From positions 2,272,001 to 2,336,000 of the forward strand of contig CAVRAY010000001.1 of the NCBI GenBank assembly GCA_963719225.1: a stretch of DNA of 64,000 nt. The letters are read 5' to 3'. Position numbers and translations under genes: made by a program. Under the pieces are notes generated by a model. The model saw only the letters and a list, made by a program, of their open reading frames with translations, had not been told where the DNA came from and searched no databases. Shown one piece after another: positions 29,583 to 52,289 of the stretch. Each line of letters opens with the position of its first letter. The first letter of the stretch is position 1. The DNA is from Thermoanaerobaculia bacterium. GTDB lineage: Bacteria; Acidobacteriota; Thermoanaerobaculia; UBA5066.

Positions 29583-32161
29583 CGAGCCCCCTCCACAAGA
29601 AAAAGATGGGATGACATGCGGCGGCATGCGTACGCGTAGCTCTTGAGGTCGCCGCTGAAGACGAACGGCCCGACGTCCAGGACTCCAGTCAGGTCGGCGG
29701 GGCCGAGCGTGCGCATCGGTTCGCGCCGGCCCGTTGCGATCTCGAGCCTCTCGATGCGGGCGGGAACCTCCCCGCTGCGCGAGACGAGCATCGAACGGCC
29801 GTCTGGGCTCCACCGGATGACCTTGTCTTCGGGAGTCGCGCCCGCGACGGGCCGAGGCTCGCCTCCGTCGACTGGATAGAGGACGAGAGCGCCGCCGCTC
29901 GCCTTCACGAGGAGCAGCTGGCCGTCCGGCGACACGAACCCCTGGCTCGTTCCCTCCGGCGTCACGGGGCGGGGCTTGCCCGCTGCGACGTCCTGCACGA
30001 AGCACCGGACGGCCTTTCCCTCCTGGTGGCCGCAAACGACGATCCTCTTCCCGTCCGGGAAGAACTGCGCCCACTCGTAGCCGACGAGTCCTCCCCGCTC
30101 GAACTTGAGAGGCTCGCCAGCGCCGGTGGGATAGAGCACGAGCTGAGGGGGCGTCGTGAAAATGACGGCGAGCGCCCACTTCCCGTCACGGGACAGGTCG
30201 TTCGCGGCGCCTTCCCCGAGGCGGACGACCGGCGACCCGTCCGTCTGGCGCAGGCACACCGCGTAGTTCACGCCGACGCTCCCGCTCTCTTCCGAAAAGA
30301 GGAGCGTCCTGCCGTCTGAACTCAGAGCCGACGGGTCGGACAGGTCCAGCCACGAGAGGTCGCGCTCCCGAGTCTGGCCCGGCGCGAGGACCGGCATCTC
30401 GCGGAAGAAATCGTCCCGCGTCGTGAGCCAGCGCCCGTCCGACCGGACGTCGTGGATCGTGAGGCCTCCGGCGCTCTCGAGCGCGACTCGCCGCGTGCCC
30501 GCGAGGGTGACTCCGTAGACGCGGAAGTTGTTGTAGGCGTTTCCCGCGGAGAACATGACCTCGTCTCCCGACGGGGACCAGGCCAGTCCCTCCTCGCCCC
30601 AGTAGCCTTCCGAGAGGATCGTCTTCTTCCCGGCGAGGTCCACGACGACGACTTCTCCGCGGTCGTCGAACCGGAACGGATGCTGGAAGAAAGCGATCCG
30701 GTCCCCGCGCGGAGAGAACCGGGGATTGCTGAAGTAGCCGCCCGTCTCGGCGAGGACCTTGCCGGTCGGGTACTCCAGACGGTCCTTGCCCCCGAAGTCC
30801 CGGATCAACGCCAGGTTCGCGCCGTCGGGGGACCAGTCGGCCTCGCGCACACCGTCGAGGACGTCCCTCGGCGCGCCGCCCTCCAGCGGCATCCGCGCGA
30901 GGGTGCCTTCATAGAGGCTGTGACCCTTGTACCGGACGCGGGTGAGCACCGCCAGCTCTCCCTTCGATGAAATCGAAAGCAGGTGTCCGGCGAGCAGGGA
31001 GCGCGGGCTCGCGCCCGGGTAGTCCGCTCGAAGCGAGAAGATCTCCGGCGTGTTCCCGGACGGGGCCGCGCTATAGACGACCGTCTTTCCGTCCGGGGCG
31101 AGCCGGGCGTTGAAGATCGGCTCCTGCCGAAACGTGAGCTGCGCGAAGGACGGGACGGCGACGATCGAGCGCTTTCCCTTCCACAGCCCGACGCCAAACG
31201 ACGCCGCGGCAGCGAGGACGCCGACTGCAATCGCGGCGGCGGGAACCCAGCGACGGACGCTCCGCGTCGACGCAAGCGCGGCGGCCCGGCCGGACGCGGA
31301 GCTCCCGCCCAGCGCTTCGAGGTCGTACGCGAGGTCGCGAGCCGACTGGAACCGTTCCGCCGGGTTCTTCTCGAGGCAATGCCGGACGAGTCGGTCGAGC
31401 TCGGGCGGGATTTTCGCGCCCGAGACGTCCGGGTCGGGCGGCTCCTCCTTGAGGATCGCGTTCATCGTCTCGATCGCCGAGTCGCCCTTGAACGCGCGCC
31501 GGCCCGTCAGCATCTCGAAAAGGACGCAGCCGAACGCGAAGATGTCCGACCGGGCGTCGGCCGGCAGCCCTCTCACCTGCTCGGGCGCCATGTACCCGAC
31601 GGTCCCGAGGAGCGTCCCGGGATCCGTGGCCTTCGCGAGCGTCGGCGAGTTCGTGTCCTCGCCGGCCGTGACCGCGCGTTGCTTCGCGAGACCGAAGTCC
31701 AGGATCTTCGCGCGTCCGTCCTTCGTGAGGACGACGTTTTCGGGCTTGAGGTCCCTGTGAACGATTCCGCTCTCATGCGCCGCCGCGAGGCCGCGCGCGA
31801 TCTGCGCTCCGAGCTCCACGGCCTTGCGCAGAGGCAGGGCCCCCGCGGTGATCCGCTCGCGGAGCGTCTCCCCGTCCACGAGCTCCATCACGAGGAGGTG
31901 CCGGGGAGGAGAACCGGGGATTTCTTCGATTGAATAGATCGCCGCAATGTTCGGATGGTTCAGTGCCGCGACCAGCTTCGCTTCTCGCTCGAAGCGCGCC
32001 CGGCGCTCTTCACCTTCTAAGAAATCTTCCGGCAGCACTTTGACTGCGACGTCCCTCGCCAACCTCAGGTCCCTCCCTCGGTAGACCTCTCCCATCCCTC
32101 CCGCCCCGAGCGGCGAAACGATTTCGTACGCTCCCAGTTTCATTCCGGCGGCGAGCGTCAT
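29579..32161 (-). CDS. K4: Ser/Thr kinase-TM-beta-propeller receptor (second ectodomain class)
   Basis: [11 protein letters not shown]. Ectodomain begins F.QLTFRQ..IFNAR.APDG. Confidence 0.95.
31919..32028. repeat. Box I/box II pair, copy in K4
   Basis: GATTTCTTCGATTG at 31919 and CTCTTCACCTTCTAAGAAATCTT at 32006. Confidence 0.85.
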
Positions 32162-34753
32162 CGCGCTCCCTCCACGAGGAACAGGTGGGAGATGGTCCTC
32201 GAGAAGACGTATGCGTAGCTCTTCTCGTCACTTGCGAGAAACGGAGAGCCGATGGAATTCACGCCGCTCAGGTCCGGCGGTCCGAGCGTCCGCACAGCGT
32301 CACGCTTGCCGGATGAGAGAGACGCGCTCGATGCGCAGGGGAACGTCACTCTCCCGGCAGACGAGAAGCGAGCCTCCGTCCGGACTCCAGCGGATCGCCG
32401 CCTCGTCCGGAGTCGTGTCCGGCACCGGCCGCCCGTCGCCTCCTCCAACCGGATAGACCGCGAGTCCGCCACCACTCGCGCCAACCACGATCTGGCGCGC
32501 GTCCGGCGAGAGGATCCCTCGTGTCGTGCCTTCCGGCGTGATCGCCCGCGGCTTGCCGGCGCCGATCTCCTGAACATAGCACCGCGACGCATGCCCCGGC
32601 TCGTGGCCGCAGACGAGCGCCGACCGGCCGTCGGGGAAGAACCTGGCTGACTCGTAGCTCTCGATCCCGCCGCGATCTAGGCGGCGCGGCTCCCCGGCGC
32701 CGGTCGGATAGAGCACGAGCTGCTGCGGCGACGTGGGCACGACCGCCAGCGCCCATTTTCCGTCGGGGGACAGGTCCGTAGGCATCCCCTCGCCCAGCCG
32801 CACGACGGGCGAGCCGTCGGTGCGGCGCAGACAAACTGCGTAGTTGGCACCGAGGCTGCCGCTGTATTCGACGAAGACGATCGTCTTTCCGTCGGCCGAG
32901 AGCATGGGACGGTCTGAGAGGTCGAGCCACGAGAGGTCTCGCTCAGCGGTCTGGCCGGGCAGGACGACGGGCATGCCCTGGAAGAAGTCATCGCGTGTGG
33001 CGAGCCACCGCCCGTCAGAGCGCACGTCGCGGATCGTCAGGCCTCCCGCGCTCTCGAGCGCGGTCCTCCGGCGTCCGGAGAGCGTCACGGCGATGACCTT
33101 GAACGAGCTGAGGGTGCCGCCTGCCGAGAAGAGGACCTCCTGCCCGCCGGGCGACCACGCGAGGCCCTCCTCGCCCCAGAACCCGTCGGCAAGGACGGTC
33201 TTCTTGCCCTGGAGATCCACGACGGCGACGAGACCCCGGTCGTCCCACCGGACCGGATGCTCGAAGAACGCGATCCGGTCGCCCTTCGGCGAAAAGCGAA
33301 GGTCGCTGAAGTAACCGCCCGTCTCGCACAGAACCGTTCCCGTGGGGAACTCGAGGCGGTCCTTTCCGGCGACCTCGCGGATCAGGGCGAGGCTCGCGCC
33401 GTCGGGAGACCAATCCGCCTCGCGGACGTTCTCGAGAACGTCTCGCGGCGCCCCTCCTTCGAGCGGCATCTGTGCCAATGTGCCCTGGTAAATGTTGTGA
33501 TTGATGTAACGCGCACCCGTCAGCAGCGCGAGGTCGCCCCGCGAAGAGACGGAGAGGAGGTGCACGCCCCGCAGACCCAAGGGCCGGGGCTCGGGGAACT
33601 CCGGGCGCACGGTGAAGATCTCTGGCGTGTTGCCCTGCAGGGCCGCGCTGTAGATGATCGTCCGGCCGTCGGCAGCGAAGCGCGCGTTGAAGATCGCCTG
33701 CTGGCGGTACGTCAACTGGCTGAAAGAGGCGCCGCCCTGCCGGGAAGCGTTCTCCGCCCGCCGCCCGACGAAATAGGCCGCCACCCCGGTCCCGGCGAGG
33801 AGCGCGACGATCGCCACCGGAAGCAGCCCGCGTTTGGGCCTCGCGGAAAACGCCTGCGCGGGCGGGACGCTCGACGCCGAAACACCGGACAGCGCTTCCA
33901 GCGCGAACGCGACGTCGTGCGCCGAGTGAAACCGCTGTTCCGGGTTCTTCTCGATGCAGTGCCGGACGATGCGGTCGAGTCCGGGCGAGATGCTCTGGTT
34001 CGTGACGGAGAGCTCGGGCGGGTCTTCCCTCAGGATCGCCGACATCGTCTCGGCCGCCGAGTCGCCGTGGAACGCCCTCTTCCCCGAGAGCATCTCGTAC
34101 AGGATGGCTCCGAACGAGAAGATGTCCGACCGCGCGTCGGCCGGCTTGCCTTTGACCTGCTCGGGCGACATGTACCCGAGCGTGCCCATCACGACTCCGG
34201 GCTCTGTGCCCGCTGACGCCGTCGGGAGGTTCGTCGCCTGGCGGCCCTCTTCCGGGTGGGTTAGCTTGGCGAGACCGAAGTCGAGGATCTTGAGGCGGCC
34301 ATCCCTCGTCACGAACAGGTTCTCGGGCTTCAGATCGCGGTGCACGATCCCCTTCTCGTGTGCCGCGGCGAGGCCGTGCGAGATTTGCAATGCAAATTCG
34401 ATCGCCTTCCGTTGCGACAACTTTCCCGCCGCGAGGGCCGCGCGCAGCGTTTCGCCCTCGAGCAGCTCCATGACGAGGATGTGGCGCGAGGGGGCACCCG
34501 AAGAAACAGGGATTTCTTCGAATGAATGAATGGCGGCGATGTTCGGATGGTTCAGCGAGGCCAGCAGCTTCGCTTCACGCTCGAATCGCTGCCTTTTCTC
34601 TTCCCCTTCAAAGAATTCTTCCGGGAGGACCTTTACCGCGACGTCCCTCGCGAGCCTCGTGTCCTTCGCCCGGTACACCTCTCCCATCCCCCCCGCGCCG
34701 AGTGGCGCGAGGATCTCGTACGGGCCGAGCTTCGTGCCGGCAGTCAGCGTCAT
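32158..34753 (-). CDS. K5: Ser/Thr kinase-TM-beta-propeller receptor, frameshift near 32315-32322
   Basis: Start [10 protein letters not shown] at 34753. The frame stops at 32300, but the K4-like tail (..[20 protein letters not shown]) continues in another frame to 32158. Confidence 0.88.
34511..34620. repeat. Box I/box II pair, copy in K5
   Basis: GATTTCTTCGAATG at 34511 and CTCTTCCCCTTCAAAGAATTCTT at 34598. Confidence 0.85.
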
Positions 34754-37461
34754 CGGCTCGACTCCTCGCTCTTCTCGAGGAGCCGGGTCCAATGAACGAG
34801 CAGGCTCAGGGGCGGCGAGCCCTGCTCGTCGGGGACAGTGTTGACGAGGAACCTCTGGTGGTCTCCCGTGGCGTCGTAGGCCGATCCGTTCAGGCTCGGA
34901 TGGATCGCAAACAGGAGCGCGGGCGGCCCGGCGTGGAATCCGGAACTCGTGCCGAGCGGCACCGCCATGAGCTTGTTGTCCGGGGTGAGGAACGTGAGCT
35001 CCTTGCCGTCGCGGCGCCAGTGCGGCTGGCTGCCTCCCGCGGTCGAGATCTGCCAGCGGCCGCCGGGGCCCGGGAACGGGCGCACGTAGACCTCGAATCG
35101 CCCGGATTCGTCCGAATCGTATGCAAGCCATCGCCCGTCGGGCGAGAAGCGGCTGTCTCCTTGAAAGTTCGCTTCCGTGGCGAACGGACGGACTTTCTTC
35201 TCTCCCGACGCATCGGCGATCCACAGCTGGTTGTTCCGCTTTCCCTGCGCCGGGACGTTGTCGAGCGAGAGGAATTTTCCGTCCGGAGACCAGTCCTCGG
35301 GAGTCCGAGCGTCGGGAGATTCGAGCAGAACTTCCTCGGCGCTTCCGTCGAAGGACTTCGTCCAAAGATCCTGCCGGTGTCCCTTCGCCTTCCGGTCGGA
35401 CCCGAACAGCAGGCGGTCGCCGCGCGGAGCCCAGACGGGCGCGAAATTGTTCCCGCTGCCGAACACGAACTTCGTGCCGGCTCCTCCGGAGACGTCGTAG
35501 AGCCAGATGTCGGTCGTATTCCGGCCGAGATCGATGAGACCGACCGCGATCCTCCGGCCGTCGGGCGAGAGACGCGGGGCGAACCAGAGACCTGGCTCGC
35601 CGACCGTTCCGGCGGGCCGGCCGTTGCGGTCGAACCAGGCGAGCTGCGACGGGATGGCGAAGGCCGGGATCGAGAGGAGGAGGTCGTTCGACACCGTGAA
35701 CTGGCCGTATCCGTACCAGCTCGAGGTATTCAGGCGCTGCGCGATGGGGACGGGCTCTCCTTGCGCCTCGAGCCGCGCGAGATCGATCTTGACGGCGAAA
35801 AGCGCTCCCTCGTGGAGATAGAGAACGCGTCCCGCCGCGAATGCGGGATTCGAGGCGATCCCCGCGACCAGGGCTTTGTCCGTTTTGCCGTCGAGAGACC
35901 CCACGCGAATCGAGTTCGCGGGATCGCCCGTGTTCCCCGACAGGTTGGCGGCCATGTAAAGGAAGTGCCGCCCGTCCGGCAGGAACACGGGGTATCGATG
36001 GGCGGTGACGTGAAGAGACGCGTCGAGCCGCGTGACCGGTTCCGGCTTGCCGCCCGACGAGGAGACGCGGAACAGGGGCGAGGTCGGCGTCGGGCCGAAG
36101 ACGATGACGCCGTCGCGGTTCCACGCTCCGCCGACGCCCCGCGCCGCTTCGCAGACGGTGAGGGCGGGACCGCCGGACGGGTCGATCTTCTTCAGCGATC
36201 CCTGGGTGAAGTAGCCGATGAACCGGCTGTCGGGCGACCAGAATGGAAAGCTGGCTTCCTCGGCGCCGGCCACCGGGTGCGCCGCGGGGGAGCCGAGGTC
36301 CCTGATCCAGAGGCCCGGTTGCGCGCCCGCTATCGACGCGGTGAACGCCAGCGTTCTCCCGTCGGGAGAGAGCGCGATCGACTCGACGAACGTCTTCTCG
36401 GGAGGCGGGATCGCGGCGAAGATCGGCGCGGGGATGCGCGGAGCACGCCGGAGGAATCCGGCCACGAAGACGACTGCAGCGGCCGCCGCGACAGCCGCGA
36501 GCGTCCATGCGAGCTTCTCGCGGTTCTTCCGCCGGGCGGCGACGGGCGCCGGGAGTCCGGCCTGCGAGCCGCCCTCGCCGACCCACTGGAGCTGGAGCTT
36601 CACGTCGTGCGCCGTCTGGAGACGGTCCTCCGGGTCCTTCGAGAGGCAGGTCGCGATCAGCCGATCGAGCGCCGGCGGCGTCATCGGCGCGATCGACGAG
36701 ACGGGTGGCGGGTTGTCCTTCAGGATCGAGCCGATGAGGCTCGCCTGGCTTTTCCCGTCGAACGCCTTCTTCCCCGTCGCCATCTCGTAGAGCACCACGC
36801 CGAAGGAGAAGATGTCGCTGCGCGCGTCGGCCTCGCCCCCCTCGAGCTGCTCGGGCGCCATGTACTGGAACGTCCCGAGGATCGTGCCCTGCTGCGTCAG
36901 GTTCTGAGGAGGGGCCATCGTGGGCAGCGACGTGGCGCCGGACGTGTGAGCGGCGGGCGCGAGGACCTTCGCGAGGCCGAAGTCCAGGAGCTTCGCGCCG
37001 CTCTTCGTCAGCATGACGTTCCCGGGCTTGAGGTCTCGGTGCACGATCCCCTGCCGGTGCGCCTTGTCGAGCGCGTCGGCGATCTGCATCCCGATCGGCA
37101 GCAGCTGGTCGAGCGCCATCGGCCCCTTCGCGAGGCGGGCCATGAGCGTCTCTCCCTCGATCAGCTCCATGACAAGGACGTGACGCGTTACCGAAGAAGA
37201 GGAAGAAGAAGAACCGGCGATTTCTTCGAATGAAAAGACCGCCGCGATGTTCGGGTGGGTCAAGCCTGCGAGCAACTTCGCTTCCCGCTCGAAACGCGCC
37301 CTGTTCTCTTCACCTTCTAAGAAATCTTCGGGGAGTACCTTGACCGCGACGTCGCGTCCGAGGCGAAGGTCTCGGGCCCGGTAGACCTCTCCCATGCCTC
37401 CCTTGCCCAGCAAGGAGACGATCTCGTACGGACCGAGCCTGGTGCCGGGCGTCAGCGTCAT
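34750..37461 (-). CDS. K6: Ser/Thr kinase-TM-beta-propeller receptor (903 aa)
   Basis: Start [10 protein letters not shown] at 37461. [21 protein letters not shown]. Confidence 0.95.
37219..37328. repeat. Box I/box II pair, copy in K6
   Basis: GATTTCTTCGAATG at 37219 and CTCTTCACCTTCTAAGAAATCTT at 37306. Confidence 0.85.
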
Positions 37462-40067
37462 CTCAGCCCTTCGATGACGTAGAGCGTGCTGCGCTGCACG
37501 ATGTATCGCGCAGCCATCTGGCGACCGGCCTCGCTGAAGCGCATCGATGTGGCCTCGACGCCCACGTAGCCGGCGGGGTTGACGACGCGCCACGTCTGGC
37601 GTTTCCCGGTCGCGGGATCGAGCTTCCAGACCTCGATCGGAAAGCTGCCGGGCCTCGAGGCGTAGAAGCGCCCGTCGGGCGTCCACTGGATCAGCCGCTC
37701 GCCGTCCTCCAGACCCACGATGCGGCGCGGCGGCGCTTGCGGATGGCCGAGATCGAAGATCCCCCATCCAGCCTTCTCGCGCGCGAGGAAGCTCCGGCCG
37801 TCGGGGCTCAGGAACGGCCACGTGTCGAGACCCGTGACGCCCTCCGGCGTGATGGGCTTCGGCGTGCTCCCGTCGAGGCTCTGAACCCAGACGCGGTCCT
37901 CTTTCTCTCCCTCCGCGCCGATGAAGATCAGGCTCTTTCCGTCCTTCTGGAAAGCGACCGACTTGATCGAGCGGATGCCGTGGGCCGGGAGCTCGCGAGG
38001 ACTGCCCGTTCCCGTCGGATAGAGGACCCAGCGCCGGCTCGGCTTCTCGACCCACGCCGCCGCGAGCGATCCGTCCGGCGAGAGAGCGCCCCAGCCGCTG
38101 CTCTTCCCGAGCGGTGTCGCGTGGCCGCCGACGGCGGGCCTGAGGAACAGGTCGGGGAGCGGACCTTCCTCCTCCTCGAAGAGGAGTGTCTTTCCGTCGG
38201 CCGAGCAGTCGAGCAGGTAACTCCACGTGCGCCACGAGAGGTCGACCGGCTGCGCCTGCCCGTCGGCCTGCGCGAGGAGCCCGCCGCGCATCTCTTCCCG
38301 GCTCATGAGGACGCGCCCGTCCGGAGAGACGTCGTGAATCGACAATCCGCCGGCCTGGCTGAAGACCCTGCGCTCTCTTCCGGAAAGGTCCACGGCGTGA
38401 AGAGCGCGGTTGAGAACGTTCGTTCCGGCCGTGAACCAGACTTCCCGCTCTTTCCAGGCGAGCCCGCGGAGAGTGTCGTGATCCTTCGACAGGATCCGAG
38501 TCTTCCCCGCGTCGACGTCGAGGACGGCGACGCGCCCCGCGTCGTCTCCGGCGGCCGGGTGGTCGACGTACGCGAGCAGCTTGCCGTCCGCCGAAAACCT
38601 CAGGTCGCCGAACCACCCCGCGGATTCCGCCCGAACTTTTCCCTGCGGGTACTCGAGAAACGACCGCCCTCCCGCCTCACGTGCGAGCGCGAACTCGCCC
38701 TTCGGCCCGCAGGCGGACTGAAGGACGCCGCCGAGGAGTGGTTTGGGAGCCAGATCCACGCCGAGAGCCGAGCGAGCCAGTGTTCCCTCGAACTGCCACG
38801 TGTCGGCGACCTTGCTCTTCAGCCGCAGGGCCACTTCACCGGCGGGCGAAAGGTCCATGAGCTGAACGTCGCCCTGGCCGAGCGGCCTCTCCTTGGGGTC
38901 GGCGACGGGGGTCGAGAAGAGCTGCCACGGCTCCCCCTGCCAGCTCGCGTCGTAGACGACGTCCTGACCGCCGGGCGCGAACCGGGCCTTGCCGATACGG
39001 CCCTGGCGAAACGAGATCTGCTGGAAGGACGGCTGAGGATGGCGTCCCACGTGCACCGCGCCGGCCAGCCATGTGGCAGTGGCCACGGCCAGCACGGCCG
39101 CGGCACCGAGGCCGATCCACCTCCAGCGCTCGCCCTTCGGCCGGCCCCTTTGCTTCCCGCCGTCGACGGAGGAGATCGTCGTAATGGCTTGAAGGTCGAA
39201 GCCGATGTCTTTCATCGACTGGAAGCGGCTCTCGGGCGACTTCTCGAGGCAGTGAAGAACGAGGCGCTCCAGCGCCGGTGGCATCTGGCCCCGCGTGACC
39301 ACGAGCGCCGCCGGATCGTCGTGAAGGATGGCGTTCAGTGTCTCGACGCCCGACTTTCCTTCGAACGCCTTTCGCCCGCTCAGCATCTCGTACAGGACGA
39401 CCCCGAAGCTGAAGATGTCGGTCCGATGATCCGCGGGCTCGCCGCGCACCTGCTCCGGGCTCATGTAGCCGACGGTCCCCATGACGACGCCGGCCTGCGT
39501 GTGGTGGCTTCCCCCGGCCTCCGTTGGGGCGGTCGTCTGTTGGTCGCTCGGACCGGCCCACTTCGGCAGCTGCTTGGCGAGGCCGAAGTCCAGCAGCTTC
39601 ACCCGGCCGTCACGGCCCAGGAAAATGTTCTCCGGCTTCACGTCGCGGTGGACGATTCCGCGGAGGTGCGCCGCGGCGAGGCCCTCGGCCATCTGAGACG
39701 CCAGTTCGACGGCCTTCTTCGGCGCCAGCGCGCCAGCCCGAAGGCGATCGCGAAGCGACTCCCCTTCGAGCAGCTCCATGACGAGGATGTGGCGCGACGG
39801 CGAAGAGGAAGAAGGAGAGGAAGGGATTTCTTCGAATGAGTGGACGCCCGCGATGTTCGGATGGTTCAGCGAGGCCAGCAGCTTCGCTTCACGCTCGAAT
39901 CGCTGCCTTCTCTCTTCCCCTTCAAAGAATTCTTCCGGGAGGACCTTTACCGCGACGTCTCTCGCGAGCCTCGTGTCCTTCGCCCGGTACACCTCTCCCA
40001 TCCCCCCCGCGCCGATCGCGGAGAGGATTTCGTAGGGCCCCAACTTGGTGCCGGCGGCGAGCGTCAC
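37458..40067 (-). CDS. K7: Ser/Thr kinase-TM-beta-propeller receptor (second ectodomain class)
   Basis: HRDVKPEN, DFG. Ectodomain begins FQQISFRQG...ARFAPGG. Confidence 0.95.
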   Translation of the reverse strand: MTLAAGTKLGPYEILSAIGAGGMGEVYRAKDTRLARDVAVKVLPEEFFEGEERRQRFEREAKLLASLNHPNIAGVHSFEEIPSSPSSSSPSRHILVMELLEGESLRDRLRAGALAPKKAVELASQMAEGLAAAHLRGIVHRDVKPENIFLGRDGRVKLLDFGLAKQLPKWAGPSDQQTTAPTEAGGSHHTQAGVVMGTVGYMSPEQVRGEPADHRTDIFSFGVVLYEMLSGRKAFEGKSGVETLNAILHDDPAALVVTRGQMPPALERLVLHCLEKSPESRFQSMKDIGFDLQAITTISSVDGGKQRGRPKGERWRWIGLGAAAVLAVATATWLAGAVHVGRHPQPSFQQISFRQGRIGKARFAPGGQDVVYDASWQGEPWQLFSTPVADPKERPLGQGDVQLMDLSPAGEVALRLKSKVADTWQFEGTLARSALGVDLAPKPLLGGVLQSACGPKGEFALAREAGGRSFLEYPQGKVRAESAGWFGDLRFSADGKLLAYVDHPAAGDDAGRVAVLDVDAGKTRILSKDHDTLRGLAWKEREVWFTAGTNVLNRALHAVDLSGRERRVFSQAGGLSIHDVSPDGRVLMSREEMRGGLLAQADGQAQPVDLSWRTWSYLLDCSADGKTLLFEEEEGPLPDLFLRPAVGGHATPLGKSSGWGALSPDGSLAAAWVEKPSRRWVLYPTGTGSPRELPAHGIRSIKSVAFQKDGKSLIFIGAEGEKEDRVWVQSLDGSTPKPITPEGVTGLDTWPFLSPDGRSFLAREKAGWGIFDLGHPQAPPRRIVGLEDGERLIQWTPDGRFYASRPGSFPIEVWKLDPATGKRQTWRVVNPAGYVGVEATSMRFSEAGRQMAARYIVQRSTLYVIEGLR
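39825..39934. repeat. Box I/box II pair, copy in K7
   Basis: GATTTCTTCGAATG at 39825 and CTCTTCCCCTTCAAAGAATTCTT at 39912. Confidence 0.85.
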
Positions 40068-40666: not shown

Positions 40667-43431
40667 TTCCTGCCGCTCCGCTCCGCCGGCCAGTTCACGA
40701 CGAGGTCGAGCAGGGCATTGGGCTTCTGGCCCTCGCCGACGACGAGGAGGCGCTCGTGGTCGGCCGTCGGGGAGAAGCCCGGCGCCGCCGGGCTCGGGCC
40801 GGGGGCGCGCATGAGGGGCCGGCTCGCACCGACCTCGAGGCTCTCCCCCCGCGACTCGACGCTCACCGCCCGGACGATTCCGGACGTGTCGTGATACAGG
40901 ATTTCCTTGCCGTCGGCGCTCCAGAACGCGTACGCGCCCCCTTCGGTCGAGATCTGCCACTTCCGGCCGGCGCGCGGGAAGGAAGTGGCGTACACCTCCC
41001 AGCGGCCGGACTCGTCGGAGCTGTAGGGTAGCCACTTCCCGTCGGGCGAAAGCGGCGAGGCGACGAGGCTCGCTTTCGACTTGAGGACGACCTCCTGCGC
41101 GTGCGTGGCGTCGAGCGCGAGCGTCCGGATTTCCGCGCCCGGCGCATCGCCCCACTGGACGAACACGATCTTGCCTCCGTCCGGCGTCCAGGCCGACGCC
41201 TCCTTGTCGATGTCCGAGACGAGAAGGGGCTCCTCGTCTCCGGTGCCGTCGAGCGACTTGCGAAAGAGGTCCTCGTGGCCCTTTCGGACCGAGGAAAAGA
41301 CGATGGACCGCCCGTCCGGGGACCAGAGCGGCGACCGGTCGTTCGCGGGGTCGAACGTGAAGCGCGTCCTCACGCCGCGCGCCACGTCCACGATCCAGAT
41401 GTCGTAGGTGGACGTCGCGGCATCGAGGGCCGTCACGGCCGCGAGCTTGCCGTCGGGCGAAAGCACGGCGCCCTGATACTCGCCGGCCTCGCCAACGTAC
41501 TCGGCCGCCTTGCCATCGCGGGTGAACCACCGGAGCCGCGACGCGAGGTCCCCGCGCGCTCCCTGCGTCACGAGAACGCCGTTCTGCGACGCCGAGAAGC
41601 AGGCGATCGCCGTCTGGACCGACGGCATCACGATGCGGTCCACGAGAGGAGACGCCTCGCCCGTGAAAGTTCCATTCGCGTCGATCGGGCGCGCCATCAG
41701 CGTCGCGTCGCGCAGGTAGAGGAGATGGCCCGAGGCGAACTGGGGTGCGGCCGGAGAGCGCAGGAGGACCTTCTCGGCCCCCCCGTCGAGAGACGCGAGG
41801 ACGATCGGGAACCCTTCCGCGGCGGACGCCGCCGAGCGCGCAACGTAGAGGAACCGCTTCCCGTCGGGCAGGAACCGCGGGTGGCGGTGTGAGTTGTCGC
41901 CGCGCTTGAAGTCGATCTTCGTGACTTCGACCGAGTCCCCACCCTTTTCGGAGACCTTGAAGATCGATGTGTTCGCCGAGGGCGCGAAGAGGACGACGCC
42001 CACGGGGCTCCAGGCGCCACCCTTTCCTTCGGGCGCCGGGCAGAGCGTCAGCACCGACCCGTCCGCGACGCCGATCGTCTTCAGCTTCCCGGGCACGAAA
42101 AAGCCCAACGAGCGGCTGTCAGGCGACCAGAACGGGTACTGCGCGCCCTCGGTGTTCGGAAGCACCCGCGCTTCGGCGGCGTCCAGCGGGCGGACGTAGA
42201 GGTTCACCTTCCCGACGCCGTCCGCCGCCGAGAACGCGACGGATTTCCCGTCCGGCGAGACGATGGCCGGGCCAGGGGTGTTGGACTCGAGCCAGAAGCT
42301 CGTGCCCTCCGGAGGCGAGATTCGCGCGCGAACGACCGGCGCCCCCGGGGCGCGAGCGCGCAGCGCGAGTGCCCCAGCCGCGGCCGCGAACGCGGCCGCA
42401 ATCGCCCAGGGGAGAAAGAGGGAGAAAGACTTTTTGTTCCCTCGCTCCAGTCTCGTCCGTTCTGTGCTTGCTACAGCGGGGCTGGGCAACGCGGTCTTTT
42501 CTTCGAAGGGTAATGAGGAAGACGAGGTCGCCGCGCCGGCTGCGCTCAATTCCTCGAGGTCCAGCCTCGCATCGGCGATGTCGTGGAGGCGCTGCTTCGC
42601 GTCCCGCCTCAGGCACTTTCTGAGAATCTCCTTGACCTTCTCCGGTGTTCCCACCGGCAGCGCCTCCCAGTCCGGCTCACCTCTCAGGATCGCCGCGAGC
42701 GTGTCGGAGACGGTCTCGCCTTCGAAAGCGCGCTTGCCCGCGAGCATCTCGTAGAGAACGCAACCGAACGCCCAGACGTCCGTCCGCTTGTCGACCGTCT
42801 TTCCCCGCGCCTGCTCGGGGCTCATGTACGCCGCCGTCCCGAGGATCACGCCCGCCGCCGTCGCGCGCGCCGTCAGCGTCGGCGAATGCGTGACGCCCGC
42901 ACCCGACCCCGCGACCGAATCCCCCTCGAACATCTTCGCGAGGCCGAAGTCCAGGAGCTTCACGCGGCCCTCGGGCGTGACCTTCACGTTCGCGGGTTTC
43001 AGGTCCCGATGCACGATCGCCTTCTCGTGCGCGGACTCCAGCGCCTCGGCGATCTGACGGGCATATGAAAGAGATTCTTCGAGGGAAAGAGGGCCCGACG
43101 CGAGGCGCATTGCGAGGTCTTCTCCCTCGACCAGCTCCATCACGAGGAGATGCCGGGTCGACGGAGAGGAAGAGGAGGAAGAAGAGGGGATTTCTTCGAA
43201 TGCGTAAAGAACGGCGATTCCGGGATGATTCAGGCTCGCGAGCATCCGAGCTTCGCGCTCGAACCTCTGCCGCCTCTCTTCACCTTCGAAGAATTCTTCC
43301 GGCAAGACCTTCAGTGCCACCGCCCGATCGATGCGAACGTCCTTCGCCCGATAGACCTCTCCCATCCCTCCCGCGCCCAAGGGGTCGGTGATCTCGTAAG
43401 AGCCGAGCCTCGTCCCCGTCGCGAACGTCAC
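40663..43431 (-). CDS. K8: Ser/Thr kinase-TM-beta-propeller receptor (922 aa)
   Basis: GTG start (TFATGTRLG) at 43431. HRDLKPAN, DFG, SPDG repeats. Confidence 0.95.
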   Translation of the reverse strand: MTFATGTRLGSYEITDPLGAGGMGEVYRAKDVRIDRAVALKVLPEEFFEGEERRQRFEREARMLASLNHPGIAVLYAFEEIPSSSSSSSPSTRHLLVMELVEGEDLAMRLASGPLSLEESLSYARQIAEALESAHEKAIVHRDLKPANVKVTPEGRVKLLDFGLAKMFEGDSVAGSGAGVTHSPTLTARATAAGVILGTAAYMSPEQARGKTVDKRTDVWAFGCVLYEMLAGKRAFEGETVSDTLAAILRGEPDWEALPVGTPEKVKEILRKCLRRDAKQRLHDIADARLDLEELSAAGAATSSSSLPFEEKTALPSPAVASTERTRLERGNKKSFSLFLPWAIAAAFAAAAGALALRARAPGAPVVRARISPPEGTSFWLESNTPGPAIVSPDGKSVAFSAADGVGKVNLYVRPLDAAEARVLPNTEGAQYPFWSPDSRSLGFFVPGKLKTIGVADGSVLTLCPAPEGKGGAWSPVGVVLFAPSANTSIFKVSEKGGDSVEVTKIDFKRGDNSHRHPRFLPDGKRFLYVARSAASAAEGFPIVLASLDGGAEKVLLRSPAAPQFASGHLLYLRDATLMARPIDANGTFTGEASPLVDRIVMPSVQTAIACFSASQNGVLVTQGARGDLASRLRWFTRDGKAAEYVGEAGEYQGAVLSPDGKLAAVTALDAATSTYDIWIVDVARGVRTRFTFDPANDRSPLWSPDGRSIVFSSVRKGHEDLFRKSLDGTGDEEPLLVSDIDKEASAWTPDGGKIVFVQWGDAPGAEIRTLALDATHAQEVVLKSKASLVASPLSPDGKWLPYSSDESGRWEVYATSFPRAGRKWQISTEGGAYAFWSADGKEILYHDTSGIVRAVSVESRGESLEVGASRPLMRAPGPSPAAPGFSPTADHERLLVVGEGQKPNALLDLVVNWPAERSGRK
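43189..43298. repeat. Box I/box II pair, copy in K8
   Basis: GATTTCTTCGAATG at 43189 and CTCTTCACCTTCGAAGAATTCTT at 43276. Confidence 0.85.
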
Positions 43432-45086
43432 TTCGCGTCGTCCTTCAGCCCCAGCATCTCCCACCGCTGGAGGGAGAGCGGGACGTTCCCATTCTTGTAG
43501 ACGAAGTCGTGGAACGCGCGCAGCCGGAACGAGTCGCCCTGCGCCTTCTTCGCTTCGGCGAGGAGCCGCAAAACCTGGAGCTTCCCGATCTGGTACGTGA
43601 TCGCCTGTCCGGGCGACGACGCGAACGCCGCCGCCTCGGCTCGCGCGGTTTCGGCATCCATCGGGACTGCGGTCCTGAGGTACTCGGCCGCTTGTGGGAT
43701 CGTGAACGTCCCGAGCGCGAGCCTGACGTCCACCTCGACGCGCAGAGCCCTCAGGCGCATGTAGTTCGCGACCATCTCGCGTGTCTTCGGCGCGTCCGCG
43801 TAGAGGCCGGTCGAGAGGAGCAGCTCCTCGGAGTAGAACGCGAGGCCCTCGATCGGGCCGGAGTCGTAGAACGCTCGGCGGATCTCGTCCTCGTGCCGCG
43901 ACGCGAGCGCGAGCTGGAACGCGTGCCCCGGGATCCCCTCGTGCGACATGTGCGGACGCCGGTCCTTCGCCATCGAACCCGCGAAGTAGCCGAGCTTCGC
44001 GGACGGCTTCGGGATCCAGCGGATCGAGGGCTCGCCCGGCCGCGCCGTGTTCGCGAAAAGAGTCCACTCGCCGAAGCCGTCCAGCGCCTCGAGGTACGGC
44101 GGCACGGGCAGGTCGACGTAGCGCGGAAGGTCTGCGGGCACGCTCGCGATCCCCTTCTCCTCGAGGAACCGCCGGATCTCGGCCTCGGCGCGTGCCGTCA
44201 TCGCCGACTGGGCGGCCTGGTTCGGGACCATCGCGAGCTCGGGCGCGCCCGTGTTGCGCTGGCGCTCGTAGACCTCGAGCGCAACGGAGCGGTCGTACTC
44301 CTGCCGGCCCATGAGGAGCAGCTCCTCCGGCGTGAACGGTACGAGAGCGACCTCGCGGAGGAAGAAGAGATAGCCGTCGCGGCCGACCGGCTTCCGGTCC
44401 GACAGCAGCGGCAGACGGGCCTCGAGCCAGACCCTGAAGGACTCCAGCGCCGCGATCGCGCTTTCCGTTGCCGGGCCGACGCGCGCGCGCGCGTCCGGAG
44501 CGAGAAATGGGGAGAGCGCCGCCATGGACGCCTTCAGCTTCAAGCCGATCCTCTGCAGATCCTCGATCGCGAGCTTCGTGAACGGCGCGGCGGCTTCGTG
44601 GAGCATGGCTTGCGCCTGATCCAGCGTGCGCGGGATCGACTCCAGCCGCACCGCGAGGTCCGTGCTGCGCGCCTCGTCGAAGGGTGGCGGCGACAGCATC
44701 GCGTCCACGAGAACCGGCAGCGTCTGGTCCACCCAGAACGTCGGGTCGCGCCGCCACGAGCGCTTGACGTCCAGCTCCCAGCGCACGCGCGCGAGAGCCG
44801 AGCCGATCAGGCGCCGATCCACTTGCCACGGGACCGGACGCGACGGATCGGCGAGCGCCTTCAGGCGTTCCTCGAAGAGGACGAGCGTCCGGCGCCGGGT
44901 CTCGATGGAGTCCGCCGACCAGTCGGGCGCCCAGCCGTGCGGCCGGACGACTCGCGCCACGTCGTCGCGGTCCATCGGCTTCGTGACCGCGCGCCAGGAC
45001 CAGAAGTCGCGGGAAAGCGTCAGGAGGTCGTCGGCCGCGGCCGGGCACGCGAAGGACAGCACGAGTGCGATCGCGACGGATCTCAT
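43428..45086 (-). CDS. Exported DUF885 family protein
   Basis: Signal peptide MRSVAIALVLSFACPAAA, HEGIPGH.FQL, EG.AFYSEE, PGQAITYQIGK, LR.FHD. Confidence 0.85.
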   Translation of the reverse strand: MRSVAIALVLSFACPAAADDLLTLSRDFWSWRAVTKPMDRDDVARVVRPHGWAPDWSADSIETRRRTLVLFEERLKALADPSRPVPWQVDRRLIGSALARVRWELDVKRSWRRDPTFWVDQTLPVLVDAMLSPPPFDEARSTDLAVRLESIPRTLDQAQAMLHEAAAPFTKLAIEDLQRIGLKLKASMAALSPFLAPDARARVGPATESAIAALESFRVWLEARLPLLSDRKPVGRDGYLFFLREVALVPFTPEELLLMGRQEYDRSVALEVYERQRNTGAPELAMVPNQAAQSAMTARAEAEIRRFLEEKGIASVPADLPRYVDLPVPPYLEALDGFGEWTLFANTARPGEPSIRWIPKPSAKLGYFAGSMAKDRRPHMSHEGIPGHAFQLALASRHEDEIRRAFYDSGPIEGLAFYSEELLLSTGLYADAPKTREMVANYMRLRALRVEVDVRLALGTFTIPQAAEYLRTAVPMDAETARAEAAAFASSPGQAITYQIGKLQVLRLLAEAKKAQGDSFRLRAFHDFVYKNGNVPLSLQRWEMLGLKDDAK

Positions 45087-47893
45087 TTCGTCTTCACCGT
45101 CACGGCCCAGTTCTGGACGAGGGTCAGCGGCGTCGAGGCCTTCTCGGTGACGACCGCGTTCACGATGAACTTCTGCCCGTCCGGGAACGGGTCGTACTGG
45201 GGGATGTTCGTCCGCCGACTCTGCAGCGTGAACAGCTCGTGCGGCGTGCCTTTCTCGAACGCCGCTCCGGTCTTCACACTCACCGAGGTGAGGCGGAATC
45301 CTTCCGCGAGGTAGAAGAGCTCGCGTCCGTCGCGGCTCCACCTCGGCTGGGAGCCTCCTCCCGCGGAGATTTGCCATTTCCCCCCGGCGCCGCTCGACGG
45401 CCGGACGTAGACCTCCTGCCTCCCGGTCTCGTTGGACATGTACGCGACCCAGAGACCGTCTCGGGAGAAGGCCGCGTCGCGTTCCGAAGCCGGCGTGCGC
45501 AGGAACTCGCGAGCCTTGCCGTCGGCGGCGGAGAGCAGCCAGATGTCGTCCGCCATCTCCGCCGTCGAGCCGTTGTAGACGATGAACCGTCCGTCGGGAG
45601 TCCAGTCCGTCAGAAACTTGGATCCGGGGGAAAGGAAGGCGTCCGCCGGCGAGGAGACGGGCGCCGAACCTGTCGGCGCCGCCCGGGCGACGATCCGCTC
45701 CTCGTCGCCGCCCACGAGGGTCTTCTCGAAGATGAACCACAGGCCCTTCCGGAAGGAGCCGAACGCAAAGCGCCTCCCGTCCGGAGAGAAAACGGGCGTG
45801 TAGTCGTCACCGGGATCGAACGTCCGTCGTACTGGTTGCTCCGCACCGACCGCGTCGAACGTCCAGATGTCGCGATTGCTGCTCACGGGGTCGATCAATT
45901 CCGTGACGACGAGCCTTCCATCCGGCGACACGCGCGGAGTCCAGTAGTTCCCGACGTCTCCCAGCGTGCGAAGGACCTTTCCGGCGCGGTCGTAAACCGC
46001 AAGTCGGGAGTTTCCGATCGTCCCCCCCGCGGCGTAGGCGAGGAGGCCTCCCGCGGAGGCGGTGAAGATGCCGGTTCCGCCGTCCGCGAGGTACTGGACG
46101 CGCGGCACCAGGACGATCGGATCGCCGGTCGTCTCGAGCCGGCCGGCGTCGAACGCCTGCGCCATGAGACTCCCGTTCCACGAATAGAGGAGGTGGCCGG
46201 GGACGTAGATCGCGCGGGTCGCGGCCCTGACGAGCAACTTCCTTTCCTTGTGGCCGACGGCCTGGACATAGAGCTCGCTCTCGTTCCGCCGCGTCTCCCG
46301 GTCGACGCGCTGGACGATGTAGAGAAAATGCACCCCGTCCGGAAGAAACTGCGGCCACTGGTGGGAGCTCTCTCCACGCGTCTCGTCCACCGTCGTGACC
46401 TGCACGCGCTCTTTTCGTCCCGGCATGATTCTGAAGATCGCGTTGAGCAGCGCCGGCGAATAAAGGATCGTGCCGTCCGGGCCCCACGCGGCTCCGCGGC
46501 CGGGACCGCTCGCCGCGATGAACTCGACCGCGCCGCCCGAAGAGGGAATGGCCGCGAGGCCCGTCGCCTGGCCCATGAAGCCGATCATCCGGCCGTCCGA
46601 TGACCAGAACACGTTCCGCACGGCCTCCGTGCCGGGAAGCAGAAGCGACTCGCCGGACGCGAGGGACCTCACGCAAAGCTGGTTCTTCTTTCCGTCCGTG
46701 ACGAGGAACGCGAGCCGCGAGCCGTCCGGCGAGAGGACGGGGGGACCGCCGAGAAGGTCGAATGTCCAGCCTTCCGGCGGCAGGAGCGACGCCGTCAGGC
46801 TCGACGCCGCCGGCGACTGCGGGGCGCGAGCGCGCAGCGCGAGCGCCCCCGCCGCGGCCGCGCACGCGGCCGCAATCGCCCAGGGCAGAAAGATAGAGAG
46901 AGAGGTTTTGCTCCTCCTCTCACGACTCGCTCGTTCCGCGCTTGCTACAGTGGGGCTGGGCACGGCTGCATTTGCTTCGAAGGGTAATTGGCCGGATATG
47001 CCAGCCGTCGCGGCCGTCTCCTCCTCGAGGGCGATGCGCGCGTCCCCGATGTCCCGCAGGCGCTGCTTGGCGTCGCGCTGAAGGCACCTGCGCAGCAGCT
47101 CTTTCACCTTCGAGGAAATCGGCGCGCGAAGCGCGCTCCAGTCCGGCTCTTTCATGAGGATCGCCGCCAGCGTGTCGCTCACGGTCTCCCCTTCGAAGGC
47201 CCTCTTCCCGGTCAGCATCTCGAAGAACACACACCCGAACGCCCAGACGTCCGTCCGCTTGTCGACGGGCTTTCCGCGCGCCTGCTCGGGACTCATGTAC
47301 GCCGCCGTCCCCAGGATCACCCCCGCCGCCGTCGCCCGCGCCGTGAGTGTCGGCGAGTGCGTCACGCCCGCGGAGGACGCGGAGGTTCCGTCCCCTTCGA
47401 AGATCTTCGCGAGACCGAAGTCCAGGAGCTTCACGCGCCCTTCGGGTGTGACCTTCACGTTCGCGGGTTTCAGGTCCCGGTGCACGATTCCCTTCTCGTG
47501 CGCGGCCTCCAGCGCCTCGGCGATCTGCTTCGCAAGAGAAAGCGATTCTTCGAGTGGAAGAGGGCCCGACGCGAGGCGCACCGCGAGATCTTCCCCCTCG
47601 ACCAGCTCCATGACGAGGAGATGGCGGGACGATGAAGAAGAGGAAGAGGGGATTTCTTCGAATGAGTAGATCGACGCGATCCCCGGATGATTCAGGCTCG
47701 CCAGGGCGCGCGCTTCCCTTTCGAAACGCGTCCTTCTCTCTTCACCTTCAAAGAATTCTTCCGGCAAGACCTTGACCGCGACATCACGATTGAGGCGAGG
47801 GTCCTTCGCCCGATAGACCTCTCCCATTCCCCCAGCACCGAGAGGCGCAAGAATTTCGTACGGTCCGAGTCGGACGCCAGAAGCAATCGTCAC
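45083..47893 (-). CDS. K9: Ser/Thr kinase-TM-beta-propeller receptor, first gene of the array
   Basis: Kinase motifs, TM and SPDG repeats. 936 aa. Confidence 0.95.
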   Translation of the reverse strand: MTIASGVRLGPYEILAPLGAGGMGEVYRAKDPRLNRDVAVKVLPEEFFEGEERRTRFEREARALASLNHPGIASIYSFEEIPSSSSSSSRHLLVMELVEGEDLAVRLASGPLPLEESLSLAKQIAEALEAAHEKGIVHRDLKPANVKVTPEGRVKLLDFGLAKIFEGDGTSASSAGVTHSPTLTARATAAGVILGTAAYMSPEQARGKPVDKRTDVWAFGCVFFEMLTGKRAFEGETVSDTLAAILMKEPDWSALRAPISSKVKELLRRCLQRDAKQRLRDIGDARIALEEETAATAGISGQLPFEANAAVPSPTVASAERASRERRSKTSLSIFLPWAIAAACAAAAGALALRARAPQSPAASSLTASLLPPEGWTFDLLGGPPVLSPDGSRLAFLVTDGKKNQLCVRSLASGESLLLPGTEAVRNVFWSSDGRMIGFMGQATGLAAIPSSGGAVEFIAASGPGRGAAWGPDGTILYSPALLNAIFRIMPGRKERVQVTTVDETRGESSHQWPQFLPDGVHFLYIVQRVDRETRRNESELYVQAVGHKERKLLVRAATRAIYVPGHLLYSWNGSLMAQAFDAGRLETTGDPIVLVPRVQYLADGGTGIFTASAGGLLAYAAGGTIGNSRLAVYDRAGKVLRTLGDVGNYWTPRVSPDGRLVVTELIDPVSSNRDIWTFDAVGAEQPVRRTFDPGDDYTPVFSPDGRRFAFGSFRKGLWFIFEKTLVGGDEERIVARAAPTGSAPVSSPADAFLSPGSKFLTDWTPDGRFIVYNGSTAEMADDIWLLSAADGKAREFLRTPASERDAAFSRDGLWVAYMSNETGRQEVYVRPSSGAGGKWQISAGGGSQPRWSRDGRELFYLAEGFRLTSVSVKTGAAFEKGTPHELFTLQSRRTNIPQYDPFPDGQKFIVNAVVTEKASTPLTLVQNWAVTVKTK
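47651..47760. repeat. Box I/box II pair, copy in K9
   Basis: GATTTCTTCGAATG at 47651 and CTCTTCACCTTCAAAGAATTCTT at 47738. Confidence 0.85.
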
Positions 47894-47905
47894 GTGTTTG
47901 ACCGG

Positions 47906-47911
47906 ATTCTA
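47906..47911 (-). promoter_or_regulatory. Candidate -10 element (TAGAAT) for the kinase array, near-leaderless
   Basis: TAGAAT lies 12 nt upstream of the K9 GTG. No SD and no clear -35. Confidence 0.35.
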
Positions 47912-47958
47912 GCCGCGAATGTGAAGGAGGGTATGCGCTTTGCACGAATTTCCGCGCG

Positions 47959-48909
47959 ATGGAGGACTATATGGAAGAAATGACAAGGACGACGAGAAGG
48001 TCGAGCGGAATTCGCACGATGGTGGTCGCGAGCGCGGTCGGCGTGATGCTCGCAACCGGGGGCTGCGCGTACAAGGAGCGCGACCAGCTCCGCGCCGAAA
48101 AGGTGCAGCTCACAGCCGAGAAGCAAAAGCTCTCGGATCAGCTGCAATCGATCCAGTCCCAATCGGCCGACGCGAACGCGACGCTGGACGAGGTGCAGAA
48201 GAGCCTGGAAGAAATCCGCGCCAAGGAGCTGAAGGTCATCCAGTCCTCGATCCGGGTGGCCCAGGAAGGACAGGGAAAAACTGCCGGACGTGAGCGGCTC
48301 GAGGCCGAGCTCCAGATGATCCGGGACGCCGTCCACAAAAACCTGGCGAAGCTCGCGCGCCTCGAAAAGGCGAACAAGGCGAGCGGCATCCGTGTCGCAT
48401 CGCTCGAGAAGCTCGGCGAGGAGCTCAAGAAGTCGCTCGAGGAGAAGGCGGCGACGGTCGCCGAGCTCGAGAGAAGGGTCGGGGACCTCTCCAAGACGGT
48501 CCAGACGCAGGCGACGAGCATCGCGGAGAAGGAAGAGACAATTCACAAGGGAGAGACCGAAGTCGCACAGAAGACCAAGGAGCTCAACACCGCGTACGTG
48601 GCGGTCGCCTCCAAGAACGTCCTGCAGAAGAAGGGTGTCGTCGAGAAGAGGGGCTCCATCGCCGGTCTCGGCGGCCGGTGGATCGAGACCGGCAAGTTCG
48701 ATCCCGAGGTCTTCCGCGAGATCGACGTCACGAAGGAGATGGAGGTCGCGATCCCCGCGCCCGCTTCGAAGGTGCAGGTCGTGACCGCGCAGCCGAAAGA
48801 GAGCTACGAGATCGTGGACGGCGGCCCGACCGGCTCGAGGCTCGCCGTGAAGGATCCCTCCGCGTTCTGGAAAGGCGACCGGTATCTCGTCGTGATGATT
48901 CCCAACTGA
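47959..48909 (+). CDS. Coiled-coil lipoprotein of unknown function
   Basis: Lipobox-like LATGGC, long heptad region, C-terminal ..I/V.DP..FW....YLVV motif. Start may be downstream (47980). Confidence 0.8.
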   Translation: MEDYMEEMTRTTRRSSGIRTMVVASAVGVMLATGGCAYKERDQLRAEKVQLTAEKQKLSDQLQSIQSQSADANATLDEVQKSLEEIRAKELKVIQSSIRVAQEGQGKTAGRERLEAELQMIRDAVHKNLAKLARLEKANKASGIRVASLEKLGEELKKSLEEKAATVAELERRVGDLSKTVQTQATSIAEKEETIHKGETEVAQKTKELNTAYVAVASKNVLQKKGVVEKRGSIAGLGGRWIETGKFDPEVFREIDVTKEMEVAIPAPASKVQVVTAQPKESYEIVDGGPTGSRLAVKDPSAFWKGDRYLVVMIPN

Positions 48910-48932
48910 GCTCTGGTCATCCGACGGAATCG

Positions 48933-50245: not shown

Positions 50246-50247
50246 GA

Positions 50248-51696: not shown

Positions 51697-51817
51697 ACCG
51701 ACGAGGCTGAGGAAAACGACCGCCGCGGCACCGGCGACGATCAGAATCGCCCGGCGGAGGCCGACACTCCTCCTGCGACCTCGGGGCGTGATTCCGCGAA
51801 ATGCGAGCAGGAGTCTC

Positions 51818-52261: not shown

Positions 52262-52289
52262 GAAGTTGATGTCTCCTGACGGGTGAAAA

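Follow-up and report, generated by a model that had tools for sequence, protein, structure and literature searches.

The window analysed here, a stretch of 64,000 nucleotides from a Thermoanaerobaculia bacterium (genome G000, C1:2272001-2336000; 4.75 Mb, 68% GC, two contigs, C1 and C2), contains nine Ser/Thr kinase genes, K1-K9, on the minus strand between 21.3 and 47.9 kb. A preliminary description of the kinase array had pointed out that a box motif, present in these genes as boxes I and II, recurs in K9 in a different codon phase, and had proposed a DNA site with several copies in each gene, in either orientation. This raises the question of whether the boxes belong to the kinases or to the DNA, and of what might read them. 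The boxes proved to be members of a 20-base word that is scattered over the whole genome, most of its strong copies facing a partner.

A 20-base word arranged in facing pairs

The word has the consensus RRRWTTTCTTAGAAGGKGAA (RRRWTTTCTTAGAAGGKGAARR in the iterated matrix) and occurs at 839 sites of G000 at 16 bits; about 19 are expected under a fifth-order Markov null. The genome matrix was refined iteratively on its own hits, while the test on the kinase genes described below relied on a separate matrix. TTTCTTAGAAGGTGAA, with 41 copies, is the commonest 16-mer of G000 after poly-A/T, and TTAGAAGG is its most over-represented 8-mer. TTCGAA itself is not over-represented (1.02). The sequence YTCGAAGAA, originally put forward as the site type, is merely the reverse of a minor variant, because the centre of the consensus is TTA and not TTC (variable base A 0.51, C 0.31).

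The word is not a feature of kinase genes. Only 44 of the 839 sites lie in kinase genes (18 of the 56 called kinase genes have one; any site occurs in 289 of 3925 genes), although their density there, 0.34/kb, is about twice the genome mean of 0.18/kb. Altogether 291 sites are intergenic and 548 lie within genes, where they occupy all six frames, are spread evenly along the gene length and show no link to the direction of transcription (281 sense, 267 antisense). Intergenic DNA holds 35% of the sites and makes up 11% of the genome; this share is somewhat overstated because the home-made gene caller begins some site-bearing genes, such as K9 and K6, too late. The host genes include those for aminoacyl-tRNA synthetases, Mur ligases, IspE and RmlB (names assigned by eye, partial listing). 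Peptides encoded by the sites exceed their own reversals genome-wide (FLEG 91 versus 23, FEEI 52 versus 11, PFEE 36 versus 6); no such excess was found for FLRR, SKKS and FSSK.

The arrangement of the sites is strongly polar. Among 897 sites of G000, neighbours 35-330 bp apart were convergent in 283 cases and divergent in 14, whereas strand permutation gave 92 and 93, respectively (maximum 112 in 500 runs). A convergent partner accompanies 77% of the strong sites (n = 707) and a divergent one 2.4%. The same polarity was obtained with exact pairs in 29 genomes of the genus (1150 convergent versus 28 divergent; gap ranges 30-300 and 10-300) and in 1.6 Mb of a second genome, G028 (216 versus 13). 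The polarity suggests oriented recognition, since a stem-loop would form in either arrangement. Paired sites are not linked to the direction of replication (272 leading, 273 lagging); 162 of the 283 pairs lie wholly within genes, and gaps between convergent genes are not preferred, with 6 of the 78 intergenic pairs in a class that makes up 201 of 2043 gaps.

The best spacing between facing sites is 75-77 bp, which was found at 27 of 71 independent loci (allowed range 64-92); 44 of the 101 pairs present only in G028 are spaced by 66-81 bp. Spacings below 60 bp are rare and the tail extends to about 250 bp. A 60-bp ladder in the spacings of G000 (power 9.9 at period 60) failed to replicate in G028 and was dropped. 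The DNA between the two arms, which we call the filler, is GC-rich and mostly without relatives: 242 of 275 fillers are unique and the largest group consists of kinase paralogues. Runs of short TTCGGA-like repeats were often seen just outside an arm, where they replace the purine tract (e.g. L285, L333, G000:C1:1068235).

Sites in the kinase array

The sites of the array are listed below, beginning with K9; coordinates are those of the window.

45083..47893, minus strand: K9, Ser/Thr kinase with PF00069 and PD40 repeats, 936 amino acids, host of five sites
46883..46967, plus strand: outer flank of the 46968 site, a block common to K1, K2, K8 and seven unrelated loci, marked by CTACAGTGGGG
46968..46989, plus strand: K9 pair 2, left arm (LPFEANA; site antisense to the gene), 21.9 bits
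47101..47122, minus strand: right arm of K9 pair 2, the copy first described (ISSKVK, sense phase 0), 21.0 bits
47541..47562, plus strand: third site of K9 (PLPLEES), weaker, 16.2 bits, faces box II at 201 bp
47649..47670, plus strand: box I, left arm of K9 pair 1 (YSFEEIP), 27.8 bits
47739..47760, minus strand: box II, right arm of K9 pair 1 (EEFFEGEE), 31.6 bits, 93 bp from box I
23234..23365: K1 pair 2, 23234 plus (24 bits) and 23344 minus (16 bits), 113 bp
23804..24026: K1 third site, 23804 plus, and pair 1, 23915 plus and 24005 minus, 93 bp
25989..26126: K2 pair 2, 25989 plus (26 bits) and 26105 minus (13.7 bits), 119 bp
26565..26790: K2 third site, 26565 plus, and pair 1, 26679 plus and 26769 minus, 93 bp
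29338..29449: K3 pair 1, 93 bp
31917..32028: K4 pair 1, 93 bp
34509..34620: K5 pair 1, 93 bp
37217..37328: K6 pair 1, 93 bp
39823..39934: K7 pair 1, 93 bp
42494..42632: K8 pair 2, 42494 plus (25 bits) with a weak partner near 42622 minus (10.7 bits)
43070..43298: K8 third site, 43070 plus, and pair 1, 43187 plus and 43277 minus, 93 bp

PF00069 and PD40 repeats were found in all five kinases that were scanned (K1, K2, K4, K7 and K9). K9 carries two pairs, of 93 bp and 136 bp; the latter distance (46968 and 47101, centre to centre) is the same in the K9 homologues of two further genomes, G001 and G065. The purine-rich outer flank of box I in K9 is the antisense of a poly-Ser loop, and the block at 46883..46967 codes in frame for the linker between the kinase and the membrane segment. 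The flanks of the array (window 1-23200 and 47760-64000) have no site at 12 bits. To the right the site-free gap extends over 60 kb.

The extra copy in K9 at 47103 is indeed present; it differs from the box II 18-mer of K1 and K8 at 2 of 18 positions and is read in sense phase 0, while box II is read in sense phase 1. The related patches reported at 23237, 23807 and 26109 were also recovered, the first again at 25992 and 42497 and the second at 47544. The argument from frame independence holds in part: it is good for the ISSKVK copy and for the partner sites of K1 and K2 (23356 and 26117, sense phase 2), but the LPFEEK and PLPLEES copies contribute nothing to it because their phase, antisense phase 1, is that of box I. 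The proposal was thus borne out in that the site belongs to the DNA, recurs within single genes in either orientation and is not tied to one frame; the orientations are not free, however, since the sites form convergent pairs.

The statistical check that had been suggested, with a matrix built from the 18 boxes alone, gave 3 hits outside the boxes versus 1.1-1.5 by chance (maximum 4), which is not significant because such a matrix is over-fitted to kinase codons; synonymous resampling still recovers 17.4 of the 18 boxes with it. An independent matrix, for which 259 intergenic sites at a distance from kinase genes served as the training set, showed an excess over chance. With this matrix K1-K9 contain 13 hits of at least 12 bits outside boxes I and II, in excess of the codon-shuffled background of 1.1 after resampling of genome codons (maximum 5 in 100) or 1.6 after synonymous shuffling within genes (maximum 4 in 100). 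At 15 bits it detects all 18 boxes, compared with 6.9-8.3 after synonymous resampling.

Conservation, range, origin and chromosomal position

The conserved property of the sites is the DNA word and not the pairing between arms. The two arms of a pair do not covary: in the 283 pairs of G000 the summed identity was 22.88, as against 22.77 ± 0.19 for re-paired arms, and the result was the same for 192 pairs of G028 and 93 metagenome loci (all |z| ≤ 1.7). There is no G.U bias between arms (651 versus 616), and the duplexes of true and re-paired arms have similar energies in the three sets (-43.4 versus -42.7, -44.8 versus -44.8 and -43.5 versus -42.6 kcal). The absence of covariation argues that RNA pairing is not what is preserved. 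The word itself is preserved even at synonymous positions. In the 207 of 408 in-gene sites that could be aligned, AT-ending synonymous codons are identical between G000 and G028 at 328 of 391 core positions (84%), compared with 1028 of 2697 far away (38%), and 64 of the 258 TTA codons of the genome lie inside sites. Collinear homologues in G028 hold at least two sites for 118 of 138 G000 pairs, with unchanged spacing in only 42 of 114; the changed spacings resemble those that arise in binding-site turnover.

The range of the word has a sharp boundary. The exact 15-mer has 38-184 copies in each of the 28 other genomes of the genus; it is absent from 8 genomes of other genera of the family and occurs once in 4 of 24 genomes of the order. 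The paired pattern was found in 29 of 29 genus genomes (11-98), in 7 of 8 genomes of the sister genus (1-12) and in none of 26 others of the family. In a class-wide search, 10 genus genomes contained 51-201 copies of TTCTTAGAAGG and the remaining 131 contained 0-2. At least 119 GTDB records carry the paired pattern, and among 80 matches listed all are titled Thermoanaerobaculia or Acidobacteriota. The word and ParB surveys include one genome from outside the family, G037, on which no claim rests. In 96 kb from genera without the motif there was no site; 56 kb from the sister genus, for the most part kinase loci, gave 25. The K9 homologues of these genera likewise have no site and carry the peptides PEAFAADAERLARFERE and IYGLEESGGVRALVMEL in place of the two boxes; the region between the boxes, the kinase alphaC region, aligns to them without gaps. 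By this alignment box II arose by substitution and box I together with a short Ser-rich insertion, and the sites have rewritten kinase peptides. G063, a genome from a genus without pairs, has a single site in an FFE/SFEEI-type kinase (L258), owing either to transfer from the motif-bearing clade or to a binning error.

Substitution in place of this kind, inside coding DNA, is one of two routes by which sites originate. Most in-gene pairs shared by G000 and G028 differ little in length. The second route is the gain or loss, between genes, of whole units of 120-135 bp, together with the copying of a flank that one subfamily shares. Of 208 pairs in G028, 173 have collinear flanks in G000 and 27 of these have no site there; at 24 of the 27 loci G028 is longer by at least 48 bp, in 11 of them by 116-135 bp. 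Two loci were traced through the family: the full, the single-arm and the empty state each turn up in scattered species and the fillers change, so that gain and loss are not separable. Flanking DNA has moved as well. A subfamily of 11 copies shares about 85 nt outside one arm, marked by the tetranucleotide GTAG and with inconsistent folds. A 73-nt profile of this flank, made from 7 non-kinase copies, matches K1 with an E value of 1e-7 and K2 with one of 4.5e-5, in both cases at 21 nt from a site, and the block at 46883-46967 of K9 aligns to that of K1 with a score of 24 (99th percentile of the background 4.9). Repeat DNA has therefore been copied, in one case into the linker of a kinase.

The sites are not evenly distributed on the chromosome. 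A dif-like site is located at C1:2037573, and dnaA and parS lie on C2 near 326-334 kb. Up to 300 kb from dif there are about 30 sites per 100 kb; the density is 21-25 from there to 1.2 Mb and 12 beyond. The roughly twofold excess on the dif side persists within homologous DNA of both G000 and G028 (31 versus 14; 40 versus 19). Core DNA contains about twice as many sites per 100 kb as accessory DNA in two of three bins (40 versus 23 and 19 versus 8; 19.5 versus 21.2 in the third, of 180 kb). In G000 dif is flanked by two pairs; 16 of 20 genomes of the genus, which are kin, have a site at most 300 bp from dif, compared with 104 of 421 control gaps. Exact sites are sparse near parB in G019 and G028.

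Several other features of the genome were recorded. The dif-like site adjoins a second parA-parB pair. This neighbourhood recurs in each of the five further genomes that were read, which reach as far as a different family of the order, and suggests a terminus-linked ParAB system separate from the usual one beside parS and dnaA. No sites occur from C2:746 kb onward. The end of this contig (C2:855000-871796) has an H-NS-like gene with transposase-like and reverse-transcriptase-like open reading frames (by eye) and is possibly foreign or mis-joined DNA (contamination of G000 6.2%). An element of 1337 bp, unrelated to the paired motif and present in nine copies (e.g. C1:766247-767583), has inverted ends and one long open reading frame, and by eye is an insertion sequence. 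GCTGAGCTTGATATCGTTA occurs in 13 copies at C1:1.10 Mb and 2.197-2.208 Mb, nine of them on one strand and mostly 0.55-2.5 kb apart, an arrangement that we take to resemble an integron cassette array. TCCGTGAACCACAGGT occurs in 14 copies at a spacing of about 123-132 bp (C1:366 kb and 2.497-2.499 Mb); these are probably repeats inside coding sequence.

Explanations and known systems

The sites are polar, have a spacing optimum, are conserved at the DNA level and take no account of filler, strand, frame or direction of replication; together these properties suggest a symmetric protein that holds two oriented sites on duplex DNA. We give about even chances to the explanation that the polar pairs are bridged by a clade-specific DNA-binding protein with a likely role in chromosome organisation. 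A two-fold symmetric protein of this kind would bind the facing pair on double-stranded DNA by gripping its two arms simultaneously, and the intervening filler would be bent or form a loop. The bound pairs would most likely organise the chromosome with a bias to the terminus, a role to which the terminus gradient points. More tentatively, the clade may possess a chromosome-marking system of its own, in which some 300 facing pairs per genome, clamped by protein at an optimum of 76 bp, graded towards dif and flanking it, would have started from a small repeat and been favoured so strongly that conserved proteins were overwritten, a kinase helix and loop among them.

A number of observations weigh against bridging by such a protein. 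Rigid looping usually yields a 10.5-bp phasing, which is absent from the spacings (power 1.1), and a second hump at 130-145 bp in G000 was not replicated in pairs present only in G028, where it holds 7 pairs compared with 10 and 1 in the bins on either side. The sites follow a gradient of 2-2.5-fold towards the terminus and are not confined to it, 4 of the 20 genus genomes have no site beside dif, and the higher density in core DNA is equally predicted by an uptake-sequence drive. The whole-unit indels and a weak oriented consensus shared by the fillers of the 75-77 bp class (alignment score 6.6, versus 5.1 flipped and 2.2 shuffled) show the side of a mobile repeat, which bridging leaves unexplained. 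A cognate protein was not found among the candidates tried. MatP, the histone fold PF00808 and Lsr2 were not found in G000. An H-NS-like protein was rejected since it was hit in only 1 of 63 family genomes, G000 itself, in the foreign-looking stretch; a second ParB was rejected since it occurs across the order, in each of the 17 genera that were searched, and its helix-turn-helix is similar in genera without the motif. Four matches to HU/IHF were obtained. No description of this motif was found in open-access papers, without supplements, by title and the start of the abstract.

A somewhat unlikely alternative is a drive of the uptake-sequence type, in which machinery for DNA uptake, packaging or recombination favours fragments that carry a facing pair; homologous recombination would then spread the pairs to every place where the proteins can accept them, and they would have no function in the chromosome. 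Such a drive would fit sites in all six frames and on both strands, peptides (FLEG, FEEI, PFEE) in excess of their reversals, core DNA that is denser than accessory DNA, and a unit that is patchily present across species. The genome has comEC, but this gene was matched in 10 of 14 control genomes as well. The density here (0.18/kb) is lower than the 0.8-0.9/kb of the cores of uptake signal sequences (USS) and DNA uptake sequences (DUS) (PMC2817400), and a dif-centred gradient, the lack of preference for convergent gaps and fillers of 60-250 bp are at odds with such a drive.

We judge it unlikely that the pairs are decayed copies of a MITE (miniature inverted-repeat transposable element), a dimer of repetitive extragenic palindromic (REP) sequences or a repeat like the Rickettsia palindromic elements (RPE), the arms being element ends that spread by copy and paste and have no present function. 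The greater length of G028 at 24 of 27 loci, the filler consensus and the recovery of K1 and K2 by a non-kinase flank profile speak for such an origin. They are opposed by the uniqueness of most fillers, by a filler-only profile that retrieves no G000 pair (0 of 3 hits), by in-gene fillers that are native coding sequence, and by the conservation of synonymous positions, which weakens the idea of a functionless relic; several of the unit indels look like losses. Nor was a RAYT transposase (PF01797, Y1_Tnp) found in G000, which is 97% complete and was the only genome covered by that search. By eye, no transposase-like gene was seen in 12 long brackets and no target duplication in 22 alignments between genomes that are only about 77% identical.

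A hairpin of RNA or single-stranded DNA, in which the arms would pair in the transcript for termination, decay or processing, is improbable. The arms are reverse complements of one consensus and able to pair, intergenic DNA is enriched in sites, one gap between convergent genes is filled by a single unit, and the fillers have a slight folding advantage over shuffled sequences (mean z -1.1, n=82). Divergent pairs, however, could pair equally well and are missing, and the lack of covariation in three sets, of extra stability in true duplexes and of strand bias with transcription also contradicts it. Most pairs lie wholly in genes, and Rfam gave no match at 42000-49000 of the window (E 0.1).

It is very improbable that the sites are recombination sites that invert or excise the filler like an inverton. 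Inverted arms around 60-250 bp, unit loss between species and six tyrosine recombinases in the genome would agree with this, but the fillers include catalytic parts of kinases and of housekeeping enzymes (names by eye), keep their coding orientation in the kinase homologues read, and are bordered by arms no more alike within a pair than random arms. Finally, the idea that the sites belong to the kinase family or arise as a by-product of FE/FEE peptides, in line with the box-only matrix, is refuted by the 795 of 839 sites outside kinase genes, the independent matrix, the ordinary frequency of TTCGAA and the other peptides at both box places in motif-free genera.

Uptake sequences are the textbook case of a DNA signal that overwrites protein sequence genome-wide, and we know of few DNA signals favoured enough to do so. 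The pairs described here predict a DNA-binding or DNA-transfer machine not yet described, with a sharp phylogenetic boundary (one genus and, more weakly, a sister genus), and because of this boundary the protein should be findable by gene-content comparison. They also account for odd lineage-specific peptides that would otherwise be taken as protein adaptations.

Known systems share some of these properties, the closest being uptake sequences in the reshaping of proteins, REP dimers and MITE/RPE in outline, and matS in its bias. Like the USS of Pasteurellaceae and the DUS of Neisseria, the word is short, non-palindromic, restricted to a clade and present in hundreds of copies on both strands and in six frames; it enriches the encoded peptides, arises by substitution in place and is rarer in genes and in accessory DNA (PMC2817400). 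USS/DUS cores are evenly spread and pair as terminator hairpins (PMC2817400), whereas about three quarters of the strong sites here have a facing partner 60-250 bp away, mostly within one gene, at a density 4-5 times lower, with a dif gradient and with gain and loss of whole units between genes. REP dimers are inverted with spacers of 20-100 bp that may differ in sequence, and they share with our sites, as do bacterial interspersed mosaic elements (BIME) and REP doublets forming hairpins (REPIN), a favoured orientation and some copies in open reading frames (PMC3733652, PMC6907758). The GTAG tag of REP recurs here only on the flank of the 11-copy subfamily; the unit is a polar AT/purine-rich word and not a GC-rich hairpin tagged GTAG/CGTC, no RAYT was found in G000, and most pairs overlie native coding DNA. 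Inverted ends, units of about 120-150 bp, presence and absence between species and the in-frame insertion of one flank block into a kinase linker (K1/K2/K8/K9) are reminiscent of MITE and RPE (PMC10969869), but here there is no conserved body, the in-gene pairs are mostly substitutions around native sequence, and the arms are constrained as DNA. The short, dispersed and terminus-biased signal matS, which is 13 bp long and occurs in 23 copies about 35 kb apart in Ter only, is read by MatP, a protein able to bridge sites (PMC6907758); our sites number about 800, stand in close facing pairs and follow a 2-2.5-fold gradient in a genome in which MatP was not found. The paired word fails a defining test of each of the known systems, USS/DUS, REP, MITE/RPE and matS. 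What is favoured in this clade is two words in a set orientation and at a preferred distance, rather than one word, and this fits none of the families tested.

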